Below are positions 16,585 through 46,455 of a stretch of 59,172 bases of DNA, in pieces. The DNA comes from Candidatus Omnitrophota bacterium (GTDB lineage Bacteria; Omnitrophota; Gorgyraeia; JABMRG01). Both the position numbers and the translations under genes were made by a program. The DNA is taken from contig JBHPDT010000003.1 in assembly GCA_042577545.1 (NCBI GenBank), positions 1-59,172 on the forward strand. Reading direction: 5' to 3'. The first letter of the stretch is position 1; the number at the start of each line of letters is the position of its first letter. Under the pieces are notes generated by a model. That model ran no database searches and was not told the origin of the DNA. It saw only the letters and a list, made by a program, of their open reading frames with translations.

Positions 16585-18020
16585 ATTGCGCCTTTTAATT
16601 CACCTATTAGCGTCTTCTCTTCAATGTCCTTTATTTTAACATCAGAGAGGGCTCCTATCAAGCTCTTATCTCCTTTATATACAACTTGCTGGTTACCGCG
16701 GGTTCTTCCCTTTATAAAAAAACCTGAGAGATCATTTGACGCTGATGGCTTTCTCTTAGCAGGCCTAAGACCCAGAGCCTCTTCCACTGAACCGATACGC
16801 TGTTCATTCTTATATCTTGTCATATCATTCTGAAGAATAAGGAGAGATTGATTACGCTCCTCCTTTATTTTTCTGGGAACATCATCATCAAGATCCGCTG
16901 CCTTTGTAAAAGGCCTGGGTGAATATTTAAAAATAAAGGAGCTATCAAATTTGATCTCTTTCATAAGCATGTATGTATCCATAAAGTCTTTATCGCTCTC
17001 CCCCGGAAATCCCACTATAATATCTGTTGTGATAGTAACATCTGGTATTATCTTCCGTAGTGAATCAACAAGCCCCAAGTAATGAGAGACCGTGTATTTT
17101 CTGTTCATAAGCTTTAGTATTCTATCAGCACCAGACTGCAGAGGAATATGAAGATGCTCACATACCTTTTTTAGATCCCTCATAGCGCTAAAAAGATATA
17201 CTGATACGTCCTTAGGATGAGATGTCATAAAACGGATCCGTTCTAATCCATCTATCTTGTTTATCTCCTCTAATAATCCAACAAAATCTGGTAACTGGTT
17301 ACTGGTTTCCCCTCGACGTCGCTCGGGACTTCCTTTGGTCGCTGGTTTCTCTCCGTAGGAGTTCACATTTTGCCCCAATAGAGTCACCTCTTTAGTGCCG
17401 GCATCAACAAGCCTCTTGATCTCATCTATTATATCTTTAGCTGGCCTTGAGGCCTCTCTGCCCCTTACATGAGGCACGATACAGTATGAGCAGAAATTAT
17501 CACAACCCTCACCAATATTAACAAACGCCCTGATCTTCTCATCACGATAAGCAGCTGAACCTTTCTTCATAGGCCTTTTTTCTCGTCCTATAGATACTAT
17601 ATGCTTTTTACCAGCTCTTATCTTATCTATGATCTCTGGTATATCATATATATTAGCTGGGCCGCAAACAAAATCGACATGAGGTAGTCTCCTAAAGACC
17701 TCTTTGCCATAGGCCTTTCCCATGCAACCGACTAAGCCCAAAATTCTTTTGGGCTTAGTCGCCCCCCTGCTTAGTTTTGCGCTAGCAAAACTAGGGGGGC
17801 CTATTACTTTCACCAAACTACCTAGATTCCCCCACACCCGATCCTCAGCGTGTTTGCGCACAGAGCATGTATTATATATAATAAGATCCGCCTCATCAGC
17901 AGACTGCACAGGGGCATACCCCTCCTGCATCATCATCCCGCAGATGATCTCACTATCCCGCTCGTTCATCTGACAGCCGTAGGTTTTGATAAATACTGTT
18001 TTATTAAGGCGTTGACTCAT
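16581..18020 (-). CDS. miaB: tRNA-2-methylthio-N6-dimethylallyladenosine synthase MiaB (methylthiotransferase)
   Basis: N-terminal FIKTYGCQMNERDSE..IYNTCSVR..VGCMG cluster ligands, radical SAM CDNFCSYCIVP, and a C-terminal TRAM-like region. It contains extra in-frame segments (see 17730-17800). Confidence 0.9.
   Translation of the reverse strand: MSQRLNKTVFIKTYGCQMNERDSEIICGMMMQEGYAPVQSADEADLIIYNTCSVRKHAEDRVWGNLGSLVKVIGPPSFASAKLSRGATKPKRILGLVGCMGKAYGKEVFRRLPHVDFVCGPANIYDIPEIIDKIRAGKKHIVSIGREKRPMKKGSAAYRDEKIRAFVNIGEGCDNFCSYCIVPHVRGREASRPAKDIIDEIKRLVDAGTKEVTLLGQNVNSYGEKPATKGSPERRRGETSNQLPDFVGLLEEINKIDGLERIRFMTSHPKDVSVYLFSAMRDLKKVCEHLHIPLQSGADRILKLMNRKYTVSHYLGLVDSLRKIIPDVTITTDIIVGFPGESDKDFMDTYMLMKEIKFDSSFIFKYSPRPFTKAADLDDDVPRKIKEERNQSLLILQNDMTRYKNEQRIGSVEEALGLRPAKRKPSASNDLSGFFIKGRTRGNQQVVYKGDKSLIGALSDVKIKDIEEKTLIGELKGAI
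17730..17800. repeat. Two adjacent strong hairpins embedded in-frame in miaB
   Basis: Hairpin A (17730-17760) is GACTAAGCCCAAAA-ttc-TTTTGGGCTTAGTC, a perfect 14-bp stem. Hairpin B (17761-17800) pairs CCCCCCT/AGGGGGG and GCAAAACT/AGTTTTGC with a small bulge. Together they encode GPPSFASAKLSRGATKPKRILGLV, inserted just before the conserved VGCMG. Confidence 0.7.
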
Positions 18021-18167
18021 AATGTGTTATATTCTTTTTCAAAATCGTATATACTAAAACTGATAGTACCGTTAGTAGCAGTATATATGACCATCGCATG
18101 ATGCTGATCAGACCAATGTTACACAAGGGTTGCAATTTTATTAACTGCCTGTTGTTTTTTATCTCCT

Positions 18168-18545
18168 TTATTGCCCTATTACCTTTCTGGCAATAACAAA
18201 TAATACCAAGAAAATTAAATCAAGAAAAGCGAAAACAACCCAAATAGTCGGTATACTAACGGACATCCAATGAAATAGTACCACCCCGGAATAGGATATC
18301 TTCAGTAAGATTCCGTACAGGATCAAGCTGCGATTTGCTAGTGGGTTTCTGGCAATATTAAAAAACATGATCGCAAAAATGATCAACAACAGTGCCGGAA
18401 ACTGAACATAACCAACATGATTGGGCGGAGGCACATTGGCCGCTTTAAAAAGCTGATAAGGAATCAACACAAACAACAATCCTAAGATTCCGTCATACAA
18501 ACCCGCTATCACAAAAAACGGTTTGATCCATTTAGGCATTCCCAT
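18168..18545 (-). CDS. Small integral membrane protein (about 4 TM), unknown function
   Basis: 125 aa, strongly hydrophobic segments. It is the last gene of the lipid-like cluster. Confidence 0.55.
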   Translation of the reverse strand: MGMPKWIKPFFVIAGLYDGILGLLFVLIPYQLFKAANVPPPNHVGYVQFPALLLIIFAIMFFNIARNPLANRSLILYGILLKISYSGVVLFHWMSVSIPTIWVVFAFLDLIFLVLFVIARKVIGQ

Positions 18546-18570
18546 CTCAACCTCCTTTGTGGTTGGTTTT

Positions 18571-19866
18571 CTATTTTAACTTCTTCTCAATTACCTCGTA
18601 AATCTCAGTGTGCTTGCCGCGATCCCAATTTAAATAAATGGATTTAGATAATTCTTCATTTAACGGCAGCGCCTTCAGATTGTTTTCCTGAAAGATCTTC
18701 AATATCGTGGGCGAATACTTTTCACATAACCAACATTCGCCCGGAAATTCGAAACGACTTCTCATCCTCTTGTAAATATCAATAAAATCCTCTTGCCCGA
18801 TATTGCCGAAGGAAATATTCAGGAACTCGCACGGCTGAACGTCTCCTTTTGCGTTAATATAAAATCTGTCTGTGCCGCCGGCAGTACATCCAAAAACATT
18901 GGGATCCTCTTCAAGAATTTGCGCTGAAATCGAAGGATAATCTTTATAGCGGGCATCGTTGTTATACATGTGAACCAATTCTTTAATATTATCCAGATCA
19001 GCTTTGCTGAAATTCTCTATGCCTGACTCAAGCCATCCTCCCGAAGGCTTGGGTTTTATCAGCTGAATCAAACACGCGTTAAATTCTTTTGTCTTATCCA
19101 TTAATTTCTGAAAATCTCCGTTATAAAAGCTTTCCCGCTTAAGACAAGAGTTAAAGGTTACTGCAACATCTGCTTTATGGCATAAACGAATGCCTTCAAC
19201 CATAGTGTTCCAGGCTTTATCTGACTTCATAAAGGCATTAACTTTTTCCGGTTCTGTGCTATGCAGTGAAAACATAATTGCTGTAAGGCCTAAGCTTTTC
19301 AATTCCTTTAAACGTTCAATGCTCATTTCGTCACCAGTTGAATTAACCCAAATCTCTGCCCCCTTACCAATCGCTGCACATAATTTTTTAAGACGCTCAT
19401 AAACCAAAAAGGGCTCTCCACCTTCGATATTGAAAAAGGCAATGCCTAAATCCTGCAATTTCTTAACCGCAGCGATAGTTAGATCAATATTGATATCCTT
19501 GCCTAAATCCTTTTTCTGATAGCAATGTTCGCAATTAAATCGGCAAGCTGAAGTGACCGAAACAAGCACTGTCGTGCAAGGGAGCTTTTCATCAAACACC
19601 ATGAACTTGCGACAGGCGGTAAAAAATGCCTTGGAAGGAAAACGGGGAATATATAACCCGAGGCGAACGCTATTTCCTATTTTAACAAACTTGTTATGAT
19701 AAATTTTCGATAGAAAATAGAGCAACCGTCTTAGAAATAATATGTATCTTCGCGGAGAAACCTTGCCTTTAAATAGGTCTGGAAGATAATAAAATAAAAT
19801 CCACAACTTAACCTTGGTGGCAAATAGACACTTCCTGAATCCAGTAATATTTTTTCCTTTTATCAT
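18571..19866 (-). CDS. Radical SAM protein with C-terminal SPASM/twitch-like Cys region
   Basis: VSVTSACRFNCEHCYQ (CX3CX2C), GGEPF, and C-terminal FGCTAGGTDRFYINAKGDVQPCEF plus CWLC. Confidence 0.8.
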   Translation of the reverse strand: MIKGKNITGFRKCLFATKVKLWILFYYLPDLFKGKVSPRRYILFLRRLLYFLSKIYHNKFVKIGNSVRLGLYIPRFPSKAFFTACRKFMVFDEKLPCTTVLVSVTSACRFNCEHCYQKKDLGKDINIDLTIAAVKKLQDLGIAFFNIEGGEPFLVYERLKKLCAAIGKGAEIWVNSTGDEMSIERLKELKSLGLTAIMFSLHSTEPEKVNAFMKSDKAWNTMVEGIRLCHKADVAVTFNSCLKRESFYNGDFQKLMDKTKEFNACLIQLIKPKPSGGWLESGIENFSKADLDNIKELVHMYNNDARYKDYPSISAQILEEDPNVFGCTAGGTDRFYINAKGDVQPCEFLNISFGNIGQEDFIDIYKRMRSRFEFPGECWLCEKYSPTILKIFQENNLKALPLNEELSKSIYLNWDRGKHTEIYEVIEKKLK

Positions 19867-19868
19867 AT

Positions 19869-20906
19869 TTAACCAGCCTGCTCTTTATACCACTTAACGG
19901 TATTTTTTATTCCTTCGTCTAAATCATAACTGCTTTTATATCCTAATACTTGCTCGGCACGATCCGTTGAATATTCGATATTGTCATAAAACATATTTAC
20001 CCTGCCTCTTGTCAACAAAGGTGGATTTTTAACATTAAACATAGTGTATATCAACTCCAAGAAGAATCCTAGGGGATAAACCATCCATTTAGGCAGCAAT
20101 ATTGGTTTTTTGACTTTAGCGTGTTCACAAAACAAAGAAAATATATTGTCCAGATGTTCATGTTTATGATCACCAATAATAATTCGATGTATCCCTTTCA
20201 ACTGTTTAGTAAACGCTAAATAATAAGCCCTAGCCACATCGGCAGCATAAACCACATGGAATTTATTTTTTCTAGATCCCGGAGAAACCGGAATCCCCTG
20301 TTCAACAGACTTAATATATTCAAGAAATACAGTGTCTTTGCCGTTTTCTCCATATACCCAGACAGGCTCTAATATAGTCAAATTCATACCTTTGATCGTG
20401 GCAAAATCTATAGCTTTTTCAGAAGCAATTCTTTTTGTATCCCGATAGTGATTCAGCTTACAAGGAAACATGCTGTCTAAAAAATATGGATAATGAGAGT
20501 TGTAAGGTGAATTTTCGCTTTTTATTTCAGAAGAATCTTCTTCCCCATAAACTGAGTTTGTACTTGTAACGATTGCATCCTTTATTCCATTTACAACACA
20601 AGCATTAAGAACATTGACGGTGCCCTCGACATTAGTTTGATAAAATGTGTCATAGCCTCCCCAATCTTTGGCGTAAGCGGCATTATGAATAACAAAATCA
20701 TATCCTTTAAAGGCATTTATTAAACTCTGCTGATCACGAATATCGCCGTATTTCAATTCAACATCATATTGTTTTATATAATCTAAATTGCTTGCCTTTC
20801 GGACAAGACAAGAGACCTTAACGCCATTATTTGAAAACGCCTTCACAATATGACTGCCGATAAATCCATTGCCGCCTGTAATTATTATTTTATTTTTTAT
20901 TGTCAT
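19869..20906 (-). CDS. NAD(P)-dependent epimerase/dehydratase-family SDR (3-beta-HSD-like)
   Basis: ITGGNGFIGSHIV Rossmann motif and YRDTK (YxxxK). Confidence 0.8.
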   Translation of the reverse strand: MTIKNKIIITGGNGFIGSHIVKAFSNNGVKVSCLVRKASNLDYIKQYDVELKYGDIRDQQSLINAFKGYDFVIHNAAYAKDWGGYDTFYQTNVEGTVNVLNACVVNGIKDAIVTSTNSVYGEEDSSEIKSENSPYNSHYPYFLDSMFPCKLNHYRDTKRIASEKAIDFATIKGMNLTILEPVWVYGENGKDTVFLEYIKSVEQGIPVSPGSRKNKFHVVYAADVARAYYLAFTKQLKGIHRIIIGDHKHEHLDNIFSLFCEHAKVKKPILLPKWMVYPLGFFLELIYTMFNVKNPPLLTRGRVNMFYDNIEYSTDRAEQVLGYKSSYDLDEGIKNTVKWYKEQAG

Positions 20907-22170
20907 ATTTCTTTAACACAATCCCCGCGTTATGCCCACCAAAACCATAAGATGTTGATATCGCCATATTCACTTCAGACTCAATGGACTTATCTACTAA
21001 ATTTAAGTTTTCTCGTGGTTCAGGAACACTGTTTCCATGGATCTTTGATTCTTTAATCGTAAGTGCTGTTACTGCCGTCTCTAAAGCCGCGCTTGCTCCA
21101 AGGGTATGCCCGAGTATGCCTTTTGTAGAATTAACAAGTGGTTGATCACTTTTAGGACCGAAAACCTCAGCTATCGCTTCGGATTCAATAGCATCATTAG
21201 CAAGAGTGCCGCTTCCATGGGCATTTAGATAATCAATGCGGCGATCCTGCTTAAGTCTGTCCAACAATTTCTTAATCTGACAACCTGACGGCTCCATTTG
21301 AACGATGTTAAAGGCATCGCTGTTGCTTTGGAAATCTACTATTTCAGCATAAATAGGAGTTCCTCTCTTTAAGGCATGCTGCTCCTCTTCTAGCACAAGA
21401 ATACAAGCAGCCCCTTGAGAAAATAAAAAGCCCGTACTTGTCTTTGAAAAAGGATACGGGATACCGTCTGGTGATTGTGTAAGAACACCTAACATATCAA
21501 ATCCTCTCATTATCCCGCCGAAATTATCAGATAGACACTCTACTCCTCCAGTTAAAATAATATCTTCGGGCCCATTTTTGATCTTCTCATAAGCATTGCC
21601 AACAGCAAACATCCCTGAGGCGCAAGCAGCGTTAATTGTATAGCTCGTTCCTTTTAATCCATAGGTGATTGAAATCCAACTGGAAATCGAGTTCGGCATA
21701 AGCATAGGCACAACCATGCGGTTATAACGAATTTTAATATTATCCAAAGCCTTAGGAATTTCGCTCTTATCCTTGATTATGTGGGCTAAATAAGAATGGA
21801 ATCCTGTTTCAAGGCTGCTGATACCTATACCGACTATGACGCCACATCCATTAATCCCATTTATAGAAAAGTTATTCTCATTTTTAACTACTTTTAATCC
21901 TGCATCCTTCAAGGCCAGACTAGCGGCAATTAAAGATAGTTTATCTTCGCCCTGCGTAACCTTGCTGTAATACTGCGGGAACCCGTATCCTTCGAGCTCT
22001 ACGGCTGGATGAGGATTGTAATAACGGGATTTAAAAGTATAACCTATCTCAAAATCCTCTGGTATTTCCTTAATGCACATGCGATTATTAAGAATGCTAT
22101 CAAAGAAGTCATCCTTACCTATTCCGATGGAACTCACAGGCCCAATACCAGTTATTACGACTCGCCGCAT
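20890..22170 (-). CDS. Beta-ketoacyl-ACP synthase (KAS I/II, FabF/FabB-like)
   Basis: VVITGIGPVSSIG, active-site INAACASG, NAHGSGT, GHTLGASAALE and SYGFGGHNA. Confidence 0.88.
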   Translation of the reverse strand: MRRVVITGIGPVSSIGIGKDDFFDSILNNRMCIKEIPEDFEIGYTFKSRYYNPHPAVELEGYGFPQYYSKVTQGEDKLSLIAASLALKDAGLKVVKNENNFSINGINGCGVIVGIGISSLETGFHSYLAHIIKDKSEIPKALDNIKIRYNRMVVPMLMPNSISSWISITYGLKGTSYTINAACASGMFAVGNAYEKIKNGPEDIILTGGVECLSDNFGGIMRGFDMLGVLTQSPDGIPYPFSKTSTGFLFSQGAACILVLEEEQHALKRGTPIYAEIVDFQSNSDAFNIVQMEPSGCQIKKLLDRLKQDRRIDYLNAHGSGTLANDAIESEAIAEVFGPKSDQPLVNSTKGILGHTLGASAALETAVTALTIKESKIHGNSVPEPRENLNLVDKSIESEVNMAISTSYGFGGHNAGIVLKKYDNKK

Positions 22171-23186
22171 TACTTCTGCTCCTTTAAATAATTGATTAAA
22201 TATTCTAAGTATTTTTTCCGGTCATCAAAATCTCTGGCGCGAACATTCAAATTACTTAAATCTAATGATCTTTTGCCGTCAAAAAAGATTCTTGAGGAAT
22301 CGTTCACCTGACCAATTTTATAAAAAGTTAGCCCCTCTTGCTTTGCCCTCTGTAAAAATTCCTGTTCGTTCTTAGGATTTATTGTAAAAAGAAGTTCGTA
22401 TTCTCCACCTTCGCCTAAAAGTAATAATTCTTTCGGTAACGATACTATAGAAGCGCCCAAAGATCCCATATCAATATAGGGCAAATTACTGATTTCATAA
22501 CCGACATTATTTAGTTCAGCGATAGTATTCAGAGCATTAAAAACACCATCGCTGGTATCAATGCAACAAGCGGCGTAATTGCCTATCAATTCTGATTCTT
22601 TAACACGCAATTGAAACCTGTTTTTGAGCATAGTAGATATCATTTTAAAGCGTTTATCATTAGAATAAAATTTAAGAGCGGCTTCTAAATTTCCTGAGCC
22701 AATCTTTCCTGAAATATAGATTGAGTCATCAATAGCCGCTCCTTTTCGATTAAGAAGCTTACTCCTTGGCTGGCCGATAACAGCCGCTGTATATCGCCAA
22801 TCTTTAGCCTTACCCAAGTCACCGCCGATAAAGACCGCGCCGGATTCTTTCAAAACATCAGAAATCCCTCGGGAGAACTTCTTTATGAAACCTTCATCCC
22901 ATTCAGTACTCACTACCATAGCATGCCCATAGAATAATGGCATCCCCGCGCAGGCTGAAATATCGCTAATCCCTCCGGCTGCGACATTCCATCCTAAAGA
23001 ATAAGGATCATTATCGCGGAACATGTCCTCAGATGAAAACTCATCAATCGTAAATAGGAATTGTTTGTTATTAAGAGAAATAACTTCTGAATCAGATTCG
23101 AAGCATTTATTGAGGCGTTTGTCGCTTTTCGGAAACATGCTTTCGATCAATTCAATCACTTTTTTCTCATCATTAGTTCGCTTCAT
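22170..23186 (-). CDS. AIR-synthase-related (PurM/ThiL superfamily) ATP-dependent enzyme
   Basis: TIDEFSSEDMF...LGWNVAAGGISDISACAGMPLFYGHAMVV and GGDLGKAKDWRYTAAVIG resemble ThiL/PurM-like folds. The substrate is unknown. Confidence 0.65.
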   Translation of the reverse strand: MKRTNDEKKVIELIESMFPKSDKRLNKCFESDSEVISLNNKQFLFTIDEFSSEDMFRDNDPYSLGWNVAAGGISDISACAGMPLFYGHAMVVSTEWDEGFIKKFSRGISDVLKESGAVFIGGDLGKAKDWRYTAAVIGQPRSKLLNRKGAAIDDSIYISGKIGSGNLEAALKFYSNDKRFKMISTMLKNRFQLRVKESELIGNYAACCIDTSDGVFNALNTIAELNNVGYEISNLPYIDMGSLGASIVSLPKELLLLGEGGEYELLFTINPKNEQEFLQRAKQEGLTFYKIGQVNDSSRIFFDGKRSLDLSNLNVRARDFDDRKKYLEYLINYLKEQK

Positions 23187-25295: not shown

Positions 25296-25540
25296 TACGA
25301 CCCCCTTAAATCAGGACAGTATTCCTTTAAAGCTTTAACAATATCCTTTACGTTTTTGATGCCTCGATAATGTTGATCTTCGATGTTTATACCAAATTCG
25401 TCCTCTAAGGCATTTACAATTATGACCATGGCAAAAGAATCAAGCCCAAGCTCATTGCGCAAATCAATATCTGCCGTAACTTTGGCTTTCTCCTCAAGGT
25501 TTTCTTCAATTATTTTTATAACTCTCTCTTCTAAGGTCAC
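25295..25540 (-). CDS. Acyl carrier protein
   Basis: 81 aa with LGLDSFAMVIIVNALEDEFG (phosphopantetheine Ser in DSF). Confidence 0.85.
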   Translation of the reverse strand: MTLEERVIKIIEENLEEKAKVTADIDLRNELGLDSFAMVIIVNALEDEFGINIEDQHYRGIKNVKDIVKALKEYCPDLRGS

Positions 25541-25549
25541 TTTCTCCTC

Positions 25550-38573: not shown

Positions 38574-38608
38574 TCCATGCCTCCTAATCGCAAAGCATTA
38601 CAGGTCTG

Positions 38609-39214: not shown

Positions 39215-39269
39215 TGGACTTTTCTTTCTTTGCCACTAAACACCTCCCACTATTTGAATCATTTTTCTT

Positions 39270-40775
39270 TTATCTAAGTGATCTCTTTAAATAATCCCTT
39301 CCTTTTTTTGTCAAACGATACTTTTGTAACCGGCTCTTAGGTTTATCAGGAATTGTTAATTCAATATGTCCATCATTTAACAGATTACGAACAACCTTAT
39401 TAAGTTGCCCTGATATTTCCTTTTGACCAAGACGTTCAGACAACTCAGACTTGCTTAATGCCCCTTCCTTTAATAACATATGAATACGATCCGCCAGTGA
39501 CTCTGGCTGTAACTCTGGCTGCGACTCTGGCTGAAACTCTGGCCGCAACTTAGGCTGTTCTTTAGCTTGTTTTCGCCAAATCGTTAAAACAAAAAAGCCT
39601 CCGTCAATCTTAAATTCAGGTTCACGAATACCTACCTTTTTACACCTTTCAACCATGTCAACGGTACCACTACCTGCTTTTTCAATATATTTAGTCAGAA
39701 ATAATGGCTCGGCTATAAGCGGATTATTTGGCTGACTGGCATGGGGTAAAAGTAATTTTTCCAGTGTTAATGGTGGATGGATAGTCCCGGGATTCCAAAT
39801 TTCCAAACGGTCTGGAAAAACCTGCACTTCTACGCTCGCATTACTGGTGTAATCACGATGAGCTATCGCATTCACGATTCCTTCAGCAACGACTTCTTCG
39901 GGTATATCATAATCAACAGGTGCTTGAGGCCCCTTTTCCCGGGTTCCCACTGAACGGTTTAACTTTGACATGACAAAATCAACAGCCTGATCAACTAAGT
40001 CAAAGAGTGTCCCTTTGTAAATCTGATAAGAAGGTATCGGCTTGCGTTTCTCCAGGGTGTGAAAATGCATGCATTTGACTTCGGAAGAAATCATAAATTT
40101 TTGAGGATTATTCCCAAACAACAAGACAGCTGCATGGCTTGGTTTGTCATTATCCAAAAGATTTAAATGATTTAGCGCATCTATCACCGGCGTTGTCTCA
40201 GACAATTTATAATTTCTTGAAGTGCGGGCTTTTGATAAAAACCAACTGATTTTTTCCGGAGAAATATCATCTACGGTCGCATTCCGGCAGGCAGACGCGT
40301 CAAAAGGTCCGGTAACAATCTTGCCATTAGAAATAAGATGGTTTATTAAACTCGCATATACAGACGCAAATAATTCTGGCTGTGTATTAAAGCGTCGTCG
40401 AATTAATTGTTCTCCTGCCAATTGAATCAATTTAGCCATCTTGGGATGTCGTTTAGAATCATCCTGCCCTTTAACGTAAATAAGTCTATGTTTCCCAAGC
40501 TCAGTTGCTAAAAGAAATTCTCTGTGCGTCGGTGACTGCCCATTGCAATCCTCATATCCATATCGATTCCCGAATATTCCAAGATAGACATCACAGTTCT
40601 TAACCTCATTCAAATATAATTCTTCTGCTTGTCGGTCGTTCGCTGGCTGCACCTCAAATAGAAACACCTCAAAAAATTGCCCAAGAAGAGGATCGCCATG
40701 AATACAATCTTTTAAAGTATAGCGCTCATTCTAAAGTTCCTTCTGCACCGCGCTAATAAATATCTTATATTTCAT
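39270..40775 (-). pseudogene. DUF4062 / AlbA_2 (Schlafen-like) / HATPase_c_4 / wHTH protein interrupted by one in-frame TAG at codon 15
   Basis: ATG at 40775-40773 overlaps the XRE stop (TAATG) and reads MKYKIFISAVQKEL-TAG(40733-40731)-NERYTLKDCIHGDPLLGQFFEVFLFEVQPA.... This is in frame with track ORF 39270-40667. Downstream motifs: AAVLLFGNNPQKF and NAIAHRDYTSNASVEVQVFPDRLEIWNPG. Confidence 0.6.
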
Positions 40776-40987
40776 TATGATTTACCCTTCTTTATCGGCT
40801 TATCGATCTCTGCTTCTCGTTTGCTTAAATACTTTTCCACATGATACTGCTGAATCTTGCTTGGGGTTGTCTTTCCGTTAAACCACCTGCTAACTGTCGA
40901 AAAAGCAACGCCCAACTCTTTTGCCAAATACTGCTGTGTAATTTTATTTTCCAAACGATAGAGCTCTAATTTTTTGATAAAATCCAT
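40775..40987 (-). CDS. XRE-family HTH transcriptional regulator
   Basis: 70 aa with ITQQYLAKELGVAFSTVSRWFNGKTTPS. Confidence 0.85.
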   Translation of the reverse strand: MDFIKKLELYRLENKITQQYLAKELGVAFSTVSRWFNGKTTPSKIQQYHVEKYLSKREAEIDKPIKKGKS

Positions 40988-41218
40988 GTGACATTTTCCT
41001 CATAATTTTATGGGATTGATATTTGCATATATTGCATTTTATAGCGCATATTCGTTCGAAAGTCAATATAAAACAACTTTAAATCGGGATATCTCATAAA
41101 ATCTATTTTTGTTCTTATCTCTTTTATTCAGAGTCTGTTGCTTAAGTGACAGACTCATTCATAAGCGGTTATCTTCCTCAACAGCTCCATTACCATCTCG
41201 AGCAGACGTAACTTACGG

Positions 41219-41251
41219 TCATCCGAAAGTGCGGATGTAGATTTTTTTCAT
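41219..41251 (-). repeat. miaB-like 5' mini-ORF, copy d
   Basis: MKKIYIRTFG followed by TGA. It starts 1 nt after the rsgA stop. The following GGATGACCGTAAGTTAC resembles copy c GGGTGACCGTATGTGTAAGTTCC. Confidence 0.65.
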
Positions 41252-41252
41252 T

Positions 41253-42323
41253 TTAGAGTTCGTGTTTTTTTAGTTGTTTTTTTGCCGTCTTGATAAATTT
41301 TCCAAATTTGCGATCTTTTTCTCTCTTCTCAAGTTTACTCATGGAATTATACTCGTTTTCTTTGTACAGCCTTATGTAATTTTTATATTTGTCTTTATCC
41401 AAATCCTGGTTTTTTACAGCGTTTCTGACAGCGCAACCAGATTCATGCTGATGAGTACAGTCTAAAAACTTGCAGTTCTTTGACAAATCATAAATCTCTG
41501 AAAAGATATCTTTAATTCCCGCATCCGAATCCAATATTCCTATTTCACGCATTCCGGGGTTGTCTATTAAAAGTCCGCCGTCTTCCAGCATAAAAAGCTC
41601 TCTATGCGAAGTAATGTGCTTACCCCTATTTGTATGGGAACTTATATTGCTGGTTTTAATTATACTTTTGCCTATAAGTGTATTTACAATAGAAGATTTG
41701 CCCACGCCCGAGGAACCGATGAAACAATATGTAAGCCCCTTTTTAATATCTTTCTTTAAATCAGCAATACCAGTGCCTGCGATGGCGCTAATTGCATAAA
41801 TATTTGTATTCTTGAATCTATCTTTTATTTCTGATAATTTTATTTCCAAATCTGCTTTGGATATTAAATCTGTCTTATTTAAAATTATCGCCGGGTGTAT
41901 CTTTCCGTTTTTTGCTAACGAGAGATATCTTTCGAATCTATTTAAACTGTAATCTCTGTCGGGCGACTGGACAACGAAAGCTGTGTCAATATTTGAAGCT
42001 ATTATTTGGACTTCTGAGCTGCCTGCTGATTTTCTTTTTAGTATTGTCTTTCTCGGTAAAATACTATCGATAATGGCCTGTTTTTTATTAAGTACTCTTA
42101 TTAAAACCCAATCACCTACTGCCGGATATTCTTCCCTGGATGAAGCTGAAAACATCATCTTCCCTGTTATCTTTGCTGAGAGCTCAGACGTCCCGTTTCT
42201 TACAAGATATAACTCCTTATGTTCCGCTATAATCCGGGCAGGAGTAAGATTGATATCCGTAACGGTCTCATGGCTATCTTTAAAGAAACGGCTATAACCT
42301 AAATCTTCTAATCTATTTTGCAC
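41253..42323 (-). CDS. rsgA: Ribosome small-subunit biogenesis GTPase RsgA (YjeQ)
   Basis: OB-fold N-terminus, circularly permuted G-domain (NKTDL ... GSSGVGKSSIVNTL ... DNPG), and zinc motif CKFLDCTHQHESGCAV. GTG start. Confidence 0.9.
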   Translation of the reverse strand: MQNRLEDLGYSRFFKDSHETVTDINLTPARIIAEHKELYLVRNGTSELSAKITGKMMFSASSREEYPAVGDWVLIRVLNKKQAIIDSILPRKTILKRKSAGSSEVQIIASNIDTAFVVQSPDRDYSLNRFERYLSLAKNGKIHPAIILNKTDLISKADLEIKLSEIKDRFKNTNIYAISAIAGTGIADLKKDIKKGLTYCFIGSSGVGKSSIVNTLIGKSIIKTSNISSHTNRGKHITSHRELFMLEDGGLLIDNPGMREIGILDSDAGIKDIFSEIYDLSKNCKFLDCTHQHESGCAVRNAVKNQDLDKDKYKNYIRLYKENEYNSMSKLEKREKDRKFGKFIKTAKKQLKKHEL

Positions 42324-42388
42324 TTACGTTCGGTTCCCTTCTAGACTATTTTATTATAACAACTTGTATTGCTGGCGGTTAGGCCTTG

Positions 42389-42478
42389 TCATATAGCCTT
42401 CTCAAAAATTACACAATCAGTTTGCGTGAACGCCTCCAGTGGCCATCTAAAAGTTTTGATGAAGATCTTGTTTTTCAT
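42389..42478 (-). repeat. miaB-like 5' mini-ORF, copy e
   Basis: MKNKIFIKTFRWPLEAFTQTDCVIFEKAI*. Its ATG overlaps the TGA of the upstream radical SAM gene (ATGA). It shares AACGCCTCCAGYGGCCAYC and CTTACGTTCGGTTC (42323-42336) with copy f. Confidence 0.7.
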
Positions 42479-43932
42479 CGTATACTAAATTTAGAAAATA
42501 CGAATCGCATCAGCTTGGTATCTAAATCAAGTAATCTTATGCCATGTTCTAACCCGATCAATCTTAATCTGCAGTATAAATATGCCAAGTACGTCTTAAG
42601 ATTTTTCTTAACGTTATAATGAATACCTCCTCTGCAAATAGTTTGCACCTCACTCAAATAATTTTTAAAATCATTGCTAAACCACGGTAGTTTTGACATT
42701 TCGCTAAAATCATAGTCTATCCAATCCTCTAAACGACTTGGGGGCACAAACCCAAGTTCACAACATCTATCATATAAAGGCGTTCCGGGATAAGGAACAT
42801 ACATAGACGGCCCGTAAACATTGACGTTTTTATCCCGTGTTAAAATCCTTGCTATTTTAATAGTTTCCAGTGCATCTTGTTTTGTTTCTTCTGGAAAACC
42901 TATCATGAAATGGTAGTTTATTTTAAACCCGAAAGAAATAGCCTTCCTATGAGCTTCAAAAACATTATCTATGGTTATGTCTTTATCTATCAGTTTTAAA
43001 ATCCTATCGGATCCACTTTCTACTCCAAAAGTCAAAGCTTGACAACCACTTTTTTTGATCAACTCAATTAAATTGTTCTCAAAATGTAAGAAAGTGTCTA
43101 TCCTCATGTCAGCATGCCAAGCAATATCAATTTTTCTTTCAATTATTCCTTTGCAAAATTTGTAAACTCTTTTTTTATCAACAAAAAAATTATCTGAGAC
43201 TAAATTAATGGCTTTCAGATTATGTTCTTTTTTTAAGCTCTCTATCATAGCAATTACTTTTTCCGCTTCAATAGCTCTCCATCGCCTACTATTAAATCTG
43301 AGGTTATAGCAAAAAGCACAACGATAAGGACACCCTCTATCTACATTTAAATCAAGAACCCCTCCTTCTTCGCTTAAAAAACTGGAGCCGGGATTTTTAT
43401 AATACTCAACATCTATCAGACTGAAATCCGGCATGGGTAAATCGTTTAAATCGAGAAATTCTGTCTCTGGCTCAGTTTGGCAAATCTTTCCTTTTTCCTT
43501 AAAAGCGATACCTTTTATTTCATTTAGATCTTTTTTATTTCTAATTTGGTCTACTATCGCTGAAAATTTTCTTTCACCCTCCCCTATTACAACTATATCC
43601 ACAGAGTCACTCCTTAAGGTTTCTAAAGGTAAAATGCTGGGGTGTATTCCTCCCCATATTATAGGAATCTGCCTTACTTTCTTTAACGCTTTCGAAAACT
43701 CCAATGCTGATTTAATTGATTTACCAGTCATAACACTTACACCTGCGCAAATAGTAGATGGGGTCATATTGTTTCTTAATTCAATAGGCCAGTATTGACA
43801 AGTTTCCTCATCGATTAATTTGACTTTTAGACCTTTCTTGACTAAGGGCGTAGCTATGTAAACCAATCCTAATGGGCAACGACCCGTTGGGTTCTTAGCT
43901 GCATTTGGCCTAAATAACATAATATCTGACAT
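42475..43932 (-). CDS. B12-binding-domain radical SAM protein (class B-like)
   Basis: N-terminal PLGLVYIATPL and IWGGIHPS (B12-binding fold), then radical SAM DRGCPYRCAFCYN. Start trimmed to MSDIML, which is preceded by AGGAGG. Confidence 0.8.
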   Translation of the reverse strand: MSDIMLFRPNAAKNPTGRCPLGLVYIATPLVKKGLKVKLIDEETCQYWPIELRNNMTPSTICAGVSVMTGKSIKSALEFSKALKKVRQIPIIWGGIHPSILPLETLRSDSVDIVVIGEGERKFSAIVDQIRNKKDLNEIKGIAFKEKGKICQTEPETEFLDLNDLPMPDFSLIDVEYYKNPGSSFLSEEGGVLDLNVDRGCPYRCAFCYNLRFNSRRWRAIEAEKVIAMIESLKKEHNLKAINLVSDNFFVDKKRVYKFCKGIIERKIDIAWHADMRIDTFLHFENNLIELIKKSGCQALTFGVESGSDRILKLIDKDITIDNVFEAHRKAISFGFKINYHFMIGFPEETKQDALETIKIARILTRDKNVNVYGPSMYVPYPGTPLYDRCCELGFVPPSRLEDWIDYDFSEMSKLPWFSNDFKNYLSEVQTICRGGIHYNVKKNLKTYLAYLYCRLRLIGLEHGIRLLDLDTKLMRFVFSKFSIR

Positions 43933-44078
43933 TCTTATCCTCCTATCATTTTTAACAAGGCATATCAACCAATAACGCTATAATTAACCACTGAAAACAA
44001 AGTTTGTAATTTCTCGCTTACGTTCGGTTCGTGTAAAAGGTACTTTTTATAACTCTATATATGGCTACTGAGCTATAG

Positions 44079-44222
44079 CTATAAATCTCTTCCAAGAAAT
44101 GTAAAATCGGTATGCCTGCCCCTATGTTTTGATTTACGAGCATAGCGCGAGTAAATGTGCGGGGGTAACGCCTCCAGCGGCCACCCATAGGTACGCAAGC
44201 AGAAACGCTTTGATTTATTCAT
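44079..44222 (-). repeat. miaB-like 5' mini-ORF, copy f
   Basis: MNKSKRFCLRTYGWPLEALPPHIYSRYARKSKHRGRHTDFTFLGRDL*. The 14-nt block CTTACGTTCGGTTC recurs at 44017-44030. Confidence 0.7.
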
Positions 44223-44284
44223 AGCTCCCTTACCCCTCATAAACCAGGAAGAGTAACCCCTTCATGTAGGGATTGCCAGATGTT

Positions 44285-46279
44285 CTACTTCTGCCAAGAT
44301 TTTGCAAAACCCAAAGCCCAATTTTTTAAAAAAACCTCGTGTAAAAAATCTGTACACTTCTTGCAAACATATTCTTTCTCATGTTCGCTTTTAAATTCCG
44401 CATAAACGGTCGAAACTATATTTTCTATCGATAACATACCATCGGATAAGATAAATATCTTTTCCTCAAGCCTGTTTAAAATTCTTCCTTTTTCAGGGCG
44501 CAATTGATTAATAAAATCGGTCTCCTTAATGTTTATGGGGTAAAATATGGTTCTGCTATCTTTTGTTTTAATTTCTCCTAATATAATCGGAAAAATATTA
44601 TTTAGCTCTCCCTTTTTAATGCGTTTTAGTAAAAACATATTAGAGTAGAGTTGATAACTAGAATTTAGAAAACGCAGCATGCGACGCTTATGACCGTGTA
44701 AAGCATATATTAATTTATTAGAAGCAATCTTTATGCTGTTTGCTTCACATTCAGCCTTAAACCTGGTAAGAAAGGTTCTGCTTTCATTACAACTCATGCC
44801 GCTTTTAGCTGAAAAACTATTCTCATTTTTAATGTTTATACCCCATTTTTCTGGATTTTTTCCTATAGGGGAATTTAGATTGAGGTAAAAAATGTTATAC
44901 AATATATCTTCAATAGAATCAGCGTTTTCTTTCAAAAATTTTACTGTTTGCTGCGCTTCTTTTTTTGTCTCTCCGGGAAAGCCAAAAAATATAAAACAAA
45001 GATTGGCAATCTTATTCTCTGAACTTTTTTTCAAGACTTGCTTAACGATAGATATCCTGATTCCTTTATTCATCAGATCTAAAACTCTTTGACACCCAGA
45101 TTCGACTCCCCAATGGATTAAGCTAAACCCCGCTTTCCGCATTAGGCGCAACAGACTATTATTGTTATAACCCTCCGTTGGCCTAGCATAAGTAGTTATG
45201 TAAATATTGTTTAGGTTATTGTCCAACATAGCTTCGCTAATTCGTTTCGCCTGGCTTGCAGTTAGTTCCTCATTATGGAAAGTAAAATGCGAACAGTTAT
45301 AATTGTTTTGTAAATGTCTAATGATATCGATAATCTTTCCGATACTGAAGGTCTTGAAATTCCCAAAATCAATGGCATGGTGCGAACAAAAAGCGCATTT
45401 TCTCCAGCTACATCCTCTAACAGTTTGCAGAGGTAAAATCCTTTTTGGAGTTAGGTAGAGATCTAAATCAAATTGGGAATAATCTGGATAAGGGAGGCTG
45501 TCCAGATCATCAATAACCCCTAAATCGTTTCCCTTAACTTCACCGTCTTTCTTGTAGAAAACATTGACGATTCCCTTGGGTTCTTTATTATTTTCTAATG
45601 TTTCTATTAAGGAGGGGAGGGCATGCTCGCCCGCTCCAATAACTAAGTAGTTAAAATATTCTTTCTCAAAAATTTTATCCAAGTTTTTTACGTTTATAAA
45701 TGGCGTTAAAGCGCCTCCAACGATAATAGGCGCTTTGGATACTTCTCTTACGCGCTTTCGGATAGTTCGTGTAAAAGTGCCAAAACTGCCCTGCAGTGAA
45801 AAGCCTATGTACCTGGGGTCGCTTTTTATGATCTCAGAGACATAACGATCAATTATTTTTAACTTAGTGTAATTCAATTCCTTAAGATAATAGAAATATA
45901 TTGCTATGAAAATATTATGGATATTATTAAATTTAACTATCATCTGACTATTAAAATAATGACGTGGATTTTTATCAATGATAACATATTGATATATACT
46001 CTTTAACTCATCTTGAAACTGCCTAAGACCTTTTTCCTCTATGGTTTTTTTATATGCTGTGATCCCTATCTTTTTTATATCATTCTCTTTCAAATCTTGT
46101 ATCAGATGCCATAGCTCTTCGCTGTCATTCACAAGCATATCTCTTAAACAACGAGTCTGGCCTTTAACCAAAGTCGTTTTTATTCCCTTCTCTTGGCAAG
46201 CAGATATTAGCATAGCGCAGCCCAGATGTGGTCGATCAGTAAGACTGTCTATTATATAGGGTTCAACTAACGTTAGCAT
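44285..46279 (-). CDS. Large B12-binding-like radical SAM protein with atypical CX4CX2C motif
   Basis: 664 aa. RGCSWRKCAFCSHH has four residues between the first two Cys. A Rossmann-like N-terminal region precedes it. Confidence 0.7.
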   Translation of the reverse strand: MLTLVEPYIIDSLTDRPHLGCAMLISACQEKGIKTTLVKGQTRCLRDMLVNDSEELWHLIQDLKENDIKKIGITAYKKTIEEKGLRQFQDELKSIYQYVIIDKNPRHYFNSQMIVKFNNIHNIFIAIYFYYLKELNYTKLKIIDRYVSEIIKSDPRYIGFSLQGSFGTFTRTIRKRVREVSKAPIIVGGALTPFINVKNLDKIFEKEYFNYLVIGAGEHALPSLIETLENNKEPKGIVNVFYKKDGEVKGNDLGVIDDLDSLPYPDYSQFDLDLYLTPKRILPLQTVRGCSWRKCAFCSHHAIDFGNFKTFSIGKIIDIIRHLQNNYNCSHFTFHNEELTASQAKRISEAMLDNNLNNIYITTYARPTEGYNNNSLLRLMRKAGFSLIHWGVESGCQRVLDLMNKGIRISIVKQVLKKSSENKIANLCFIFFGFPGETKKEAQQTVKFLKENADSIEDILYNIFYLNLNSPIGKNPEKWGINIKNENSFSAKSGMSCNESRTFLTRFKAECEANSIKIASNKLIYALHGHKRRMLRFLNSSYQLYSNMFLLKRIKKGELNNIFPIILGEIKTKDSRTIFYPINIKETDFINQLRPEKGRILNRLEEKIFILSDGMLSIENIVSTVYAEFKSEHEKEYVCKKCTDFLHEVFLKNWALGFAKSWQK

Positions 46280-46282
46280 AAG

Positions 46283-46369
46283 TTAATACTCCTGAATTAT
46301 CATCCCGCAGATGATCTCGCTATCTCGCTTGCTCATCTGACACCAGTAGGTTTTCAAAAATACCTTCAT
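46283..46369 (-). repeat. miaB 5' fragment, copy g (closest to the real miaB)
   Basis: MKVFLKTYWCQMSKRDSEIICGMIIQEY*. By hand alignment it shows about 10 mismatches in 78 nt plus a one-codon gap against miaB 17925-17995. Its last codons CAGGAG provide the RBS of the 664-aa radical SAM gene. Confidence 0.8.
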
Positions 46370-46455
46370 GCCTTGCCTCCTTGCATTTTTTGAAAATTCA
46401 AGCATGGGTGTAGATTTTTCATAACTTTCTCGATTCTAACTTGACAATTCTTTCG

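Follow-up and report, generated by a model that had tools for sequence, protein, structure and literature searches.

The closest analogue of the array described here is the staphylococcal SCC composite island at rlmH. The array lies in a stretch of 59,172 nucleotides from a Candidatus Omnitrophota bacterium (contig JBHPDT010000003.1), hereafter the window, in which 28 kb next to miaB very probably consist of small integrative elements arranged in tandem, stacked at the 5' end of this gene by site-specific recombination of a large serine recombinase (LSR).

Copies of the miaB start in the window

The original prediction described seven mini-ORFs (a-g) as decayed copies of the miaB 5' end, each heading a cassette oriented as miaB. 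Their coordinates and translations were reproduced (7/7), and every gene from 16.5 to 48 kb is located on the minus strand. Copies a-f and the atypical g separate seven co-oriented gene blocks, and the intact miaB closes the array; the description is correct for a-f, whereas g is a different case. In the following list the slash marks the break and J1 to J3 are types of cassette left end.

16581..18020, minus strand: intact miaB, 479 aa (Pfam UPF0004 and Radical_SAM)
17975, minus strand: T of the TG at the attR/attB-type junction of miaB, GGC/TGTCAGATGAAC
18021..18167, minus strand: leader between miaB and the last cassette gene
29248..29347, minus strand: junction a, attL type, TG at 29305, left end J1; copy MNKDTKKMYLRTFG, +1 frame DGRWVQYYTSIVSYLSNII and stop
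32758..32857, minus strand: junction b, TG at 32815, left end J1 with miaB-like start, TGTCAGATGG; copy MKEDRKKIYLKTFG, +1 frame VVRWTQYYTTIIPYLSGIH and stop
36251..36359, minus strand: junction c, TG at 36317, left end J2; copy MKEDARKIYLKTFG, +1 frame GDRMCKFRTMILKVLKMINIWE and stop
41155..41251, minus strand: junction d, TG at 41221, J2-type left end; copy MKKIYIRTFG, beginning 1 nt past the rsgA stop, +1 frame DDRKLRLLEMVMELLRKITAYE and stop
42409..42478, minus strand: junction e, TG at 42445, left end J3; copy MKNKIFIKTFR (Gly codon mutated), its ATG overlapping the upstream gene's stop codon, +1 frame DGHWRRSRKLIV and stop
44130..44222, minus strand: junction f, TG at 44183, left end J3; copy MNKSKRFCLRTYG, +1 frame GGRWRRYPRTF...
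46283..46369, minus strand: copy g, 28-codon miaB stub, attB-type core with the Gly codon changed to TGG

The break of copies a-f falls on one identical nucleotide, with Gly15 (GGN) as the last codon before it and the TG of codon 16 (Cys) at the joint. When up to 1 mismatch was allowed, the attL-type core ACNTTYGGNTGRCCR was found five times in the window, each time as a minus-strand match and once at each of a, c, d, e and f, against 0.17 matches in shuffled sequence (0 of 100 shuffles reached five); the attB-type core AARACNTWYGGNTGYCARATG, searched with up to 3 mismatches, matches only miaB, b and g (0.30 in shuffles). A profile built from the junctions of other genomes also recovers a-f. 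The repeated miaB-start fragments are therefore real, and they are the scars of cassette insertions at one exact nucleotide of miaB.

At the intact miaB the +1 frame reaches a stop after three codons (AVR), as in 69 of the 74 attB-type sites collected from relatives, and codons 1-15 of the gene were probably supplied by the adjacent cassette. Copy g, which had been placed in the same class as the others, is a stub of miaB rather than a broken junction: it has retained the TGTCAGATG side intact, together with 13 more miaB codons (16-28), its +1 frame also stops after three codons (GVR), and by hand count its identity to miaB is ~76% before the TG and ~89% after it. This attB-type stub, with a gene directly next to it and no J-type end, does not fit the array model. 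An additional relic, proposed at 46422-46366, amounts to a 14-nt match with copy d that was reached in 2 of 500 shuffles, uncorrected for 6 comparisons, and is not established.

A conserved leader (TTCATCGGYTNAKACAGTTTTAGACAC) is present on copies a, b and c, and copies d and e have none. The leader of miaB itself (18021..18167) contains a degraded version of the conserved motif (ctatcagttttagtatatac) and has no HTH gene; homologues of the 125-aa ORF that precedes it (18168-18545) are found directly before an HTH gene in the related contigs L085 and L115.

Cassettes and their cargo

The borders of the cassettes are the junction positions, and the genes were assigned with Pfam and, for cassettes 2 to 4, also PADLOC.

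17976..29305, minus strand: cassette 1, 11.3 kb, GC 0.377; MarR, alpha/beta hydrolase, UbiA, OYE, ACP, aminotransferase, DAGK, AIRS-like protein, KAS, epimerase, rSAM-SPASM, 125-aa ORF
29306..32815, minus strand: cassette 2, 3.5 kb; YhcG (PDDEXK nuclease; PADLOC PDC-S02, E 1e-146), 120-aa ORF, metallophosphatase, 170-aa ORF, HTH_17 gene, leader, miaB-start copy
32816..36317, minus strand: cassette 3, 3.5 kb; AbiEi (PADLOC E 4e-65), AbiEii (E 8e-100), metallophosphatase, PRiA4_ORF3, HTH relic, leader, miaB-start copy
36318..41221, minus strand: cassette 4, 4.9 kb, weak PADLOC matches; XRE, DUF4062-HATPase_c_4-Fic_C, Y1_Tnp-like protein, 180-aa ORF, SWIM protein, 109-aa ORF, HTH_17 gene, leader, miaB-start copy
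41222..42445, minus strand: cassette 5, 1.2 kb, GC 0.364; rsgA (RsgA_GTPase) as sole gene, miaB-start copy
42446..44183, minus strand: cassette 6, 1.7 kb, GC 0.352; B12-binding radical SAM protein (497 aa), miaB-start copy
44184..46342, minus strand: block 7, 2.2 kb, left border at stub g; B12-binding radical SAM protein (664 aa), miaB-start copy
29436..29795, minus strand: HTH_17/MerR-type gene, 119 aa, right end of cassette 2 (Pfam HTH_17, MerR_1)
36458..36880, minus strand: HTH_17/MerR-type gene, 140 aa, right end of cassette 4 (Pfam)
32960..33017 (approximate), minus strand: relic of an HTH_17 gene 3' end upstream of copy b, identified by colinearity

AbiE, YhcG and a lipid-type cluster of 11 genes are among the cargo. 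The expected AT-richness of the array holds in direction, with a slight difference (GC 0.379 in the array, 0.413 in the left flank and 0.393 in the right flank), and the three distal cassettes have the lowest values (0.352-0.364).

The HTH genes at cassette ends had been rightly flagged; in the LSR modules of other genomes they have a homologue, a small HTH gene (E about 1e-21). The 119-aa protein belongs to the aligned HTH family, and the 140-aa protein, which has a long helix at its N-terminus and a winged HTH of MerR type, shares 47-53% identity with the HTH proteins (60-67 aa) of these modules. Its model (pLDDT 86.8) has RacA, GlnR, BldC and MerR as best folds; among its 155 homologues, the source names that carry a taxon are all Omnitrophota or Omnitrophica with two exceptions, 'Candidatus Saelkia tenebricola' and '[bacterium]'. 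Copies b and c are preceded by 160 nt in colinear order, in which the relic at b corresponds to the end of the complete HTH gene before c. The HTH proteins may act as regulators or as directionality factors.

No integrase or recombinase domain was detected in the scanned ORFs of the window, a set to which the 2359-aa ORF at 1723-8802 does not belong, in agreement with the original prediction, and LSR queries match only the junction tails. The tail of junction a matches residues 543-566 of the L102 recombinase (tblastn, 62% identity, E 6e-4), that of b residues 553-569 of the same protein (76%, E 0.002), and that of c residues 540-557 of the L154 recombinase (61%, E 0.014). The remnants in the window are the junctions, the tail relics at a, b and c, both HTH genes and the single HTH relic; the LSR genes are all gone.

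Recombinase and complete element in related genomes

In related contigs, mostly labelled Omnitrophota although the taxon labels of metagenome bins are unreliable, 93 distinct junctions of the same type were found, which share with a-f the break ...ACN TTY GGN/TG RCC G..., and 74 intact sites read GGN/TGY CAR ATG AAY. A conserved LSR gene, with the domains Resolvase, Recombinase and Zn_ribbon_recom and with the TP901-1 integrase and SPbeta SprA as nearest solved relatives, reads into the miaB-start copy in these genomes. It is located directly upstream of miaB or of a copy of its start in L005, L008, L017, L102, L154 and L166-L172, and fragments of it are present in L094, L144, L153, L156 and L162. 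The family has 773 members at E <= 1e-40 and is common across Omnitrophota as well as in contigs assigned to neighbouring phyla.

L176 contains a complete element, both of its ends included, in which the old miaB start joined to the left-end segment J (attL) is at position 3196 and attR is at miaB ~18 kb on; the interior carries the cargo followed by an HTH-AAA_21-LSR module, and the J segments of attL and of the element's spare site are 98.6% identical. The spare site in relatives is inverted. In J2 copies the +1 frame remains open to the same stop in 27 of 29 cases, and the lengths of the J-encoded tails peak at 22 codons. Where the sequence upstream of an HTH-to-miaB locus reaches 2.5 kb or more, one or more direct J are present in every case but L097 (2.8 kb); a direct J upstream of miaB occurs in 0 of 44 loci from distant phyla.

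The same MNT-HEPN and AbiEii cassettes (83-88% nucleotide identity) occur in different array contexts, with the similarity beginning at the junction, and 133 representative cargo proteins match 146 Pfam families. Five independent contigs terminate exactly at the TG, where the perfect inverted repeats of L167, L168 and L171 also end; the core itself is palindromic no further than the GG/CC that flank the TG. A search for circular forms found none, and in their left halves the partner sites mimic each other almost exactly, a point against the model, since attP and attL would be hard for the enzyme to distinguish. Downstream of miaB the order miaB-TPR/SPOR-miaA-hflX is kept among relatives; the upstream flank is not conserved, and for this reason the proposed synteny comparison of the porin gene with miaB is uninformative.

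Assembly of the array

Of the two models initially put forward, serial insertion into the first codons of miaB with displacement of the previous 5' end is supported by the same break nucleotide in every copy and, in relatives, by the recombinase and the complete element with both ends. The site would span approximately codons 10-20 of miaB, and an enzyme of the LSR family would exchange strands at the TG in codon 16 (Cys). The right end of a cassette is M, a mimic of miaB codons 1-15, either with its own leader and HTH gene or coupled straight to the last cargo gene; the left end is J, a conserved segment of 50-90 nt, and the M-J joint would be the attachment site of the element. Recombination of M-J with the resident start and miaB (M0-miaB) would leave the old start behind as M0-J, upstream of the new cargo, and join the element's M to miaB, so that the gene remains intact; repeated rounds would stack cassettes, the newest adjoining miaB. 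The LSR gene runs through M in the +1 frame, with a stop after three codons next to miaB and a tail of ~22 residues (x-R-W...) next to J. Since J comprises a half-site and tail-coding sequence, the displaced copies share TGRCCG (G-W-P or G-stop-P). This motif had been read as a dead repeat whose propagation contradicted serial displacement, which is wrong, because it is the half-site of the element and, read in frame +1, the start of the LSR tail; the displaced junctions made by this recombinase family should all have it. The cassettes may have been mobilised in trans or have lost their LSR genes. As the tails are all that the window retains of the LSR, the recombinase may be inactive in this genome and the array a fossil.

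The lack of an LSR in the window would also be expected if the junctions had been built by the LSR in other genomes and the array had been assembled or imported here by general recombination, no recombinase ever acting, either through Campbell-type crossovers between M/leader/HTH repeats of 45-600 nt or through a large fragment of a related strain anchored in miaB. Stub g (~87% identical to the resident miaB over 28 codons) is what would be left if a foreign fragment, composed of an array and miaB, had inserted on one side only, anchored by homology, neighbouring junctions have common left-end types (a and b; c and d; e and f), and the ~160 colinear nucleotides upstream of a, b and c are enough for homologous exchange. 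Even so, every M-J joint still requires the recombinase, GC and right-end type vary from cassette to cassette, pointing to several distinct events, and the contig breaks of relatives, exactly at the TG and not within repeats, suggest variability at the site; we regard this route as unlikely.

Far less probable is the second initial model, a promoter-leader-start segment of miaB copied as a portable expression signal ahead of operons. A co-oriented gene block follows each copy, a, b and c have the conserved leader, and the leaders of a and c contain weak sigma-70-like matches, but such matches are no more frequent than in shuffled sequence (62 against 59.2), and the junction anatomy contradicts the model: the copies share their end nucleotide and continue into a conserved recombinase-tail segment, the leader is part of the cassette upstream of the junction and not of the downstream operon, and d and e are leaderless, with starts that lie 1 nt past the preceding stop codon or overlap it. 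Equally improbable is insertion by a tyrosine recombinase encoded elsewhere (of IntI type, or the host XerCD as in IMEX), with the LSR as mere cargo. Compact, co-oriented, often single-gene cassettes with very diverse cargo and no recombinase in the window would suit such a system; against it, no tyrosine recombinase accompanies the arrays (one XerD-like match in 887 ORFs, far from junctions), attC-like hairpins are absent from the junction regions (z between -1.8 and +0.8), the site is physically overlapped by the LSR gene, whose tail J encodes, and the entry point of new cassettes appears to be the miaB end and not the side of the recombinase gene. From these analyses we conclude that the array grew by serial and site-specific accretion, and that its cassettes lack a recombinase and each bring a replacement N-terminus for MiaB.

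Gene blocks and junctions ahead of miaB

All the genes located between 16.5 and 48 kb of the window lie on the minus strand, and the seven mini-ORFs that mimic the 5' end of miaB (copies a to g) are present exactly as described in the original prediction; a possible further relic, h, was not established. The order of genes and copies is as follows.

Gene order along the minus strand of the window
Distal part: porin-like gene, copy g, B12-radical-SAM (664 aa), copy f, B12-radical-SAM (497 aa), copy e, rsgA, copy d
d to c: XRE, DUF4062-HATPase_c_4, Y1_Tnp-like, SWIM, HTH_17, then copy c
c to b: AbiEi, AbiEii, metallophosphatase, PRiA4_ORF3, then copy b
b to a: YhcG, metallophosphatase, HTH_17, then copy a
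a to end: MarR and 11-gene lipid-type cluster, then miaB

The tandem organization thus listed comprises six cassettes bounded by J, the element left-end segment that follows the break in copies a to f, and one atypical block, none of them with a recombinase. The expected absence of an integrase was borne out, since no recombinase domain was found in the scanned window ORFs, a set that excludes the 2359-aa ORF at 1723-8802. The array had also been judged AT-richer than its surroundings; the direction of this difference is right and its size is slight (GC 0.379 in the array vs 0.413 and 0.393 in the flanks). The YhcG protein matches PADLOC PDC-S02, and AbiEi and AbiEii were confirmed. Other features of the window are listed below.

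Individual features of the window
18168-28984 (-): cassette 1, nearest to the intact miaB, 11.3 kb, a MarR regulator and 11 genes (alpha/beta hydrolase, UbiA prenyltransferase, OYE flavoprotein, ACP, class I/II aminotransferase, DAG-kinase-like, AIR-synthase-like, ketoacyl synthase, epimerase, rSAM-SPASM and a 125-aa ORF)
38609-39214 (-): in cassette 4, a 201-aa protein with a weak IS200-like Y1 transposase match in its C-terminal part only
41253-42323 (-): full-length rsgA (ribosome small-subunit GTPase), the only gene of a 1.2-kb cassette; copy d begins 1 nt past its stop
12099-16584 (-): two GT4 glycosyltransferases and a GH65 phosphorylase (12099-14435, without receiver domain) that separate miaB from the TPR/SPOR gene
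48318-51173 (-): 951 aa, GH65 glycoside phosphorylase fused to a C-terminal response-regulator receiver domain
1723-8802 (-): 2359-aa ORF

From its gene content, cassette 1 is a predicted unusual lipid or secondary-metabolite pathway that moves as mobile cargo. The TPR/SPOR gene directly follows miaB in 24 related loci, and downstream of miaB the region 12099-16584 may represent another variable spot. Giant proteins are a reported feature of Omnitrophota (preprint 10.64898/2026.06.07.730766).

Alignment of the copies and their flanks revealed that copies a to f parallel miaB through the Gly15 codon and break at one shared nucleotide (...ACN TTY GGN | TG...), at the TG of the Cys16 codon. The core ACNTTYGGNTGRCCR, with at most one mismatch, has 5 matches in the window vs 0.17 expected, all on the minus strand, at copies a, c, d, e and f; the intact-type core is confined to miaB, b and g. 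Past the break, the sequence groups the copies two by two, with GCAGTATTATACGA in a and b, TGACCGTA... in c and d, and TGGCCRCTGGAGGCGTT in e and f, and the regions before the break also differ among themselves. Copies a, b and c have in common the leader TTCATCGGYTNAKACAGTTTTAGACAC, with an HTH_17 gene further upstream that is intact in the case of a and c and a relic in the case of b. The start of copies d and e lies 1 nt past the stop of the gene ahead or overlaps that stop. The symmetry of the junction core is confined to GG-N-TG-R-CC. Copy g keeps TGTCAGATG and 13 further miaB codons before the radical-SAM gene; it is a stub of the attB type (the intact arrangement) and not a joint made by a recombinase. 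Such a copy could have arisen through a deletion, or through the import of a foreign array-plus-miaB fragment anchored by homology on one side. Like copy g, a decayed miaB-start copy in the Omnitrophota contig L004 (9863-10021, MKKIFVKTFGCQGNAQ...) retains the intact-type side of the site; it precedes the real start by 129 nt, in the same frame, which would allow a possible 501-aa extended MiaB.

The window HTH_17 proteins match the Pfam families HTH_17 and MerR_1, and structure prediction followed by fold comparison assigned a MerR-type winged-HTH fold with a long helix. The fold matches are generic MerR-type HTH only and speak neither for nor against a role as directionality factor; by sequence, the comparison with solved structures gave nothing useful and no likeness to a characterised directionality factor. 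Our guess is that this protein is a regulator or a directionality factor. The 13-mer ACAGTTTTAGACA occurs in the leader (36376-36403, 29364-29391) and inside HTH_17 coding sequences (e.g. around 36530), where it encodes a conserved T-V-L-D. An origin of the leader as a duplicated end of the HTH gene was considered on account of this shared stretch and rejected, given that the wider alignment is not significant (local alignment score 27 vs 22 +/- 3.5 for shuffles); the shared 13-mer could be a binding site or chance. A promoter and terminator scan was uninformative, with 62 promoter-like sites vs 59 expected. An Rfam scan of the whole window gave 0 matches, so the leader and J segments are not known RNAs.

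Recurrence of the junction in related genomes

Among contigs representing one genome per species, the closest MiaB shares 59% identity and comes from bins labelled Omnitrophota or Planctomycetia. An exact look-up of the window MiaB found no identical record, and for this reason no strain variants of the contig were comparable. The HTH_17 protein has 155 homologues; those with a taxon in the source name are all labelled Omnitrophota/Omnitrophica, except one 'Candidatus Saelkia tenebricola' and one '[bacterium]', and in long contigs the gene is located just upstream of miaB. A metagenome scan with the HTH alignment added 80 loci. Over all loci, 93 distinct broken junctions (M|J, where M is the mimic of miaB codons 1-15) and 74 intact ones (M|miaB) were collected, with an identical break throughout and with GGN-TG shared between all junctions and the target, and J is conserved across species and unrelated cargo. 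Every locus running from an HTH gene to miaB with at least 2.5 kb of upstream sequence has at least one broken junction, except L097 (2.8 kb). Upstream of miaB in loci of distant phyla, no direct broken junction was found (0 of 44). Sites devoid of a nearby element belong to distant relatives, the closest being the Omnitrophota contig L002, where the sequence upstream covers <1 kb.

Arrays of 2-4 cassettes are present in L081, L085, L094 and L138; L085 has three HTH-ended cassettes ahead of miaB. The gene order in L081 is Cu-ATPase, M-J, AbiEi-AbiEii, M-J, MNT-HEPN-HTH, miaB, TPR/SPOR, miaA, hflX ... hrcA-grpE-dnaK, with the same synteny downstream of miaB as in the window. The cargo is highly diverse: 133 representative proteins match 146 Pfam families, none with more than 3 members. 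Individual cassettes recur next to different genes; the MNT-HEPN cassette (83-87% nucleotide identity) is found in L081, L094, L138 and L139 with differing neighbours, and the AbiEii cassette (88%) in L081 and L131 with differing right neighbours. In addition, five independent metagenome contigs begin or finish exactly at the junction TG: the first base of L001, L024 and L031, three of the one-genome-per-species contigs, is at TGYCAG (TGYCAGATG), that of L138 is the start of J, and the last base of L121 closes ...GGATG. Since de Bruijn assembly stops where co-existing variants diverge, these edges probably reflect population-level variation at the site, and suggest that co-existing strains differ precisely at this TG.

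A large serine recombinase that reads across the site

Resolvase and XerD probes were searched against 887 ORFs of the related loci. This search identified serine recombinases of 560 aa whose 3' ends run into M; they carry the Pfam domains Resolvase, Recombinase and Zn_ribbon_recom, and among solved structures the TP901-1 integrase and SPbeta SprA are nearest to them. Full genes or fragments of this large serine recombinase (LSR) immediately precede miaB or an M copy in L005, L008, L017, L102, L154, L094, L144, L153, L156 and L162; beyond tail relics, the window has no LSR gene or fragment. The family has 773 members at E <= 1e-40, of which the best 120 are 61-91% identical to the query. Four of the six members that were looked up (P0125, P0207, P0197 and P0159) lie directly upstream of miaB in long contigs, with the usual miaA-hflX genes downstream in three of these loci (L166, L167, L171); different genes follow miaB in L168/L169. 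The remaining two are in L170 and L172. In these and in L154 the LSR is away from miaB and its reading frame is correspondingly longer; another cassette follows the LSR in L154 and L170, and L172 has J-type sequence after the junction and ends about 180 nt past it.

A complete element with both ends was found in L176, where M0|J (M0 being the old miaB start) is at 3196 and M|miaB about 18 kb on; the interior includes the cargo (DUF1016-SNase, a MazE-like gene and a type I restriction system) followed by an HTH(60 aa)-AAA_21-LSR module. No direct left end was found within 10 kb in L167 and L171, and among these LSR elements one was found only for that of L168, in the extended locus. The LSR modules encode HTH proteins of 60-67 aa, which align with the C-terminal half of the window HTH proteins at 47-53% identity. 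An origin of the elements as prophages is not obvious; a search of IMG/VR with the recombinase returned only 3 weak matches. In L172, the region 981-4034 (-), just upstream of the recombinase module, holds an IS110 transposase together with a diversity-generating retroelement that comprises a reverse transcriptase, bAvd and an Lcl_C target protein.

The LSR gene continues across M in the +1 frame, which at 69 of the 74 intact sites closes after 3 codons, at the TGA within ATGAAY. At broken junctions it opens into x-[D/G/V]-R-W and continues for 19-26 codons (mode 22); 27 of the 29 distinct J2 copies, one of the three types of J, hold the frame open to one common stop, and the Arg-Trp pair is encoded by both TGTCAGATGG and TGRCCGATGG. 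The window junctions read in this frame as follows, each up to its stop codon.

Window junctions in the +1 frame
Junction a: DGRWVQYYTSIVSYLSNII
Junction b: VVRWTQYYTTIIPYLSGIH
Junction c: GDRMCKFRTMILKVLKMINIWE
Junction d: DDRKLRLLEMVMELLRKITAYE

For a, b and c, these readings have counterparts at the C-termini of real recombinases (E 6e-4, 0.002 and 0.014, respectively). Judged from these tails, J is a putative element-borne half-site that also encodes the LSR tail. The G-W-P and G-stop-P motifs, taken originally for a dead version of the MiaB motif, are this J sequence read in the miaB frame, and that claim is withdrawn on the grounds of the +1-frame tails and the C-terminus matches.

The overlap of the two genes also affects annotation. 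In L166 (2021), L167 (11647), L168 (11689) and L171 (11677), gene callers place the miaB start after the recombinase stop, and the called MiaB (365-429 aa) lacks the first Fe-S cysteine region; the real start is in a different frame within the recombinase gene. Owing to this overlap, miaB starts are often mis-called in these genomes.

In all recombinase modules for which the upstream sequence is long enough, the 3' end of the recombinase and M recur as an inverted copy that stops at TG. The repeats are listed below; the perfect ones, in L167, L168 and L171, end exactly after TG.

Inverted repeats of the recombinase modules
L167: 6932-7108 vs 11466-11642, 177 nt, 100%
L168: 6590-6797 vs 11477-11684, 208 nt, 100%
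L171: 6779-6954 vs 11497-11672, 176 nt, 100%
L102: 186 nt, 89%
L170: 168 nt, 90%
L172: 315 nt, 92%
L017 (relic): 65 nt, 97%

Between the repeats lie a small HTH gene, one or two ORFs and the recombinase, and outside the inverted copy there is another conserved tail-coding segment, D[LP][WM][LF]..Y... The inverted copy may be part of an invertible recombinase module or a spare attachment site.

Known systems and proposed mechanism

In staphylococcal SCC elements, Ccr large serine recombinases insert at one site in the end of rlmH and the gene stays intact; the elements build up in tandem with short gene-end repeats between them, and many lack a recombinase and are moved in trans. By analogy, the SCC/SCCmec composite islands at rlmH (orfX) are the closest known system, given that the miaB elements are also associated, in relatives, with a serine recombinase, occupy a single site in the end of an RNA-modification gene that is conserved and remains intact, and form tandems with target-gene-end repeats between elements, some without recombinase. 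Both have a defence-rich cargo, anti-phage defence genes being abundant in SCC according to one study (PMC11470126). In contrast with SCC, which is defined by the Ccr clade and the rlmH target, the target here is miaB and the nearest solved relatives of the LSR are TP901-1 Int and SPbeta SprA; it is the 5' end of miaB and not the 3' end of rlmH that is hit, and each element must therefore bring along a start codon and 15 codons, in many cases with a promoter. Furthermore, the recombinase gene occupies the outermost position in the element and extends through the attachment site, cassettes can be as small as 1.2 kb, and the hosts are Omnitrophota and neighbours instead of Bacillota.

Insertion into gene starts is known from SXT/R391, which integrates in the 5' end of prfC. 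The dusA-specific islands rely on tyrosine integrases, and their integration replaces the gene 5' end (PMC4482086). As in both of these, the first codons of a housekeeping gene are hit (dusA is a tRNA-modification gene), the 5' end is renewed by the element, and the far border is recognizable from the displaced 5' fragment; those systems, however, use tyrosine recombinases and are usually single large elements, whereas the miaB system has a serine recombinase as its candidate enzyme and is up to seven deep. Integrons consist of compact, co-oriented cassettes of diverse cargo, often toxin-antitoxin or defence genes, with recombination sites between them. The miaB arrays share the compact and co-oriented layout, the extreme diversity of cargo and the sites between cassettes, but these sites mimic coding sequence and insertion would take place at the miaB end and not beside the recombinase gene. 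No IntI-type tyrosine recombinase was found in the scanned window ORFs; the 887 ORFs of related loci gave one XerD-like match, unlinked to junctions, and attC-like hairpins were unsupported in six junction regions (single-strand DNA folds, z -1.8 to +0.84). Membership of the integrons was ruled out by this lack of IntI and of attC hairpins.

The attachment site is inside the integrase gene in Mx8 IntP/IntX (PMC6070905) and in the SSV-type archaeal integrases (PMC7253208), which are tyrosine enzymes. The miaB system resembles them in having the site within the recombinase ORF, so that integration alters or splits the enzyme C-terminus, and differs in that the enzyme is a serine recombinase whose tail of about 22 residues is lost beside miaB and kept beside another cassette. 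SPbeta in spsM and skin in sigK are serine-integrase elements that split a gene, which is restored only on excision. The enzyme class and the location of the target inside a protein-coding gene are the same, and SPbeta SprA is among the nearest solved relatives; in contrast, miaB is repaired on insertion. No description of a miaB-targeting serine recombinase or of a miaB hotspot in Omnitrophota was found in a literature of 8 million papers, and miaB goes unmentioned in a 2026 preprint that reports 176 complete genomes of Omnitrophota (10.64898/2026.06.07.730766).

In the mechanism that we propose, the excised element would carry M|J and the recombinase would exchange it at TG with M0|miaB, giving M0|J-cargo-M|miaB. 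miaB would retain a functional start, sometimes with an element-borne leader, and the old start would become a short upstream ORF ahead of the new cargo. Repeated insertion would stack cassettes with the newest closest to miaB, an order that fits the window, where the Gly codon is lost in e and g, both distal, and the HTH gene before b survives only as a relic. The recombinase genes of the window would have been lost, or its cassettes moved in trans. On a more speculative reading, integration beside miaB would cut the LSR tail, which a neighbouring cassette or the excised circle would restore, and the module could flip through the inverted site copy, regaining the full-length enzyme. Since the element half-site mimics the host half-site, displaced junctions would stay attP-like, and cassettes devoid of recombinase, such as those of the window, would stay mobilisable. 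That the LSR family runs a self-regulating, integron-like cassette system, with the attachment site in its own frame, an inverted spare site and attP-like displaced junctions, is a tentative idea that we hold to be rather unlikely; if true, it would be a new way to build and reshuffle defence-gene arrays.

The array is a real feature that is well explained in outline, and what is new is the target, the host group and the unusual site architecture. An odd repeat pattern becomes a defined recombination system with a precise target, codon 16 of miaB, and a candidate enzyme family of more than 770 members whose natural attachment sites are readable from sequence. Large serine recombinases with known site pairs are sought as genome-engineering tools, and a family whose own gene contains the site, with an inverted spare besides, may reveal a new type of direction control. 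For Omnitrophota, which we take to be the phylum labelled 'nanobacteria' in the literature, and for contigs labelled as neighbouring phyla, the start of miaB seems to be a major point of entry of foreign genes, among them defence systems, toxin-antitoxin pairs and, in the window, an 11-gene lipid-type cluster.
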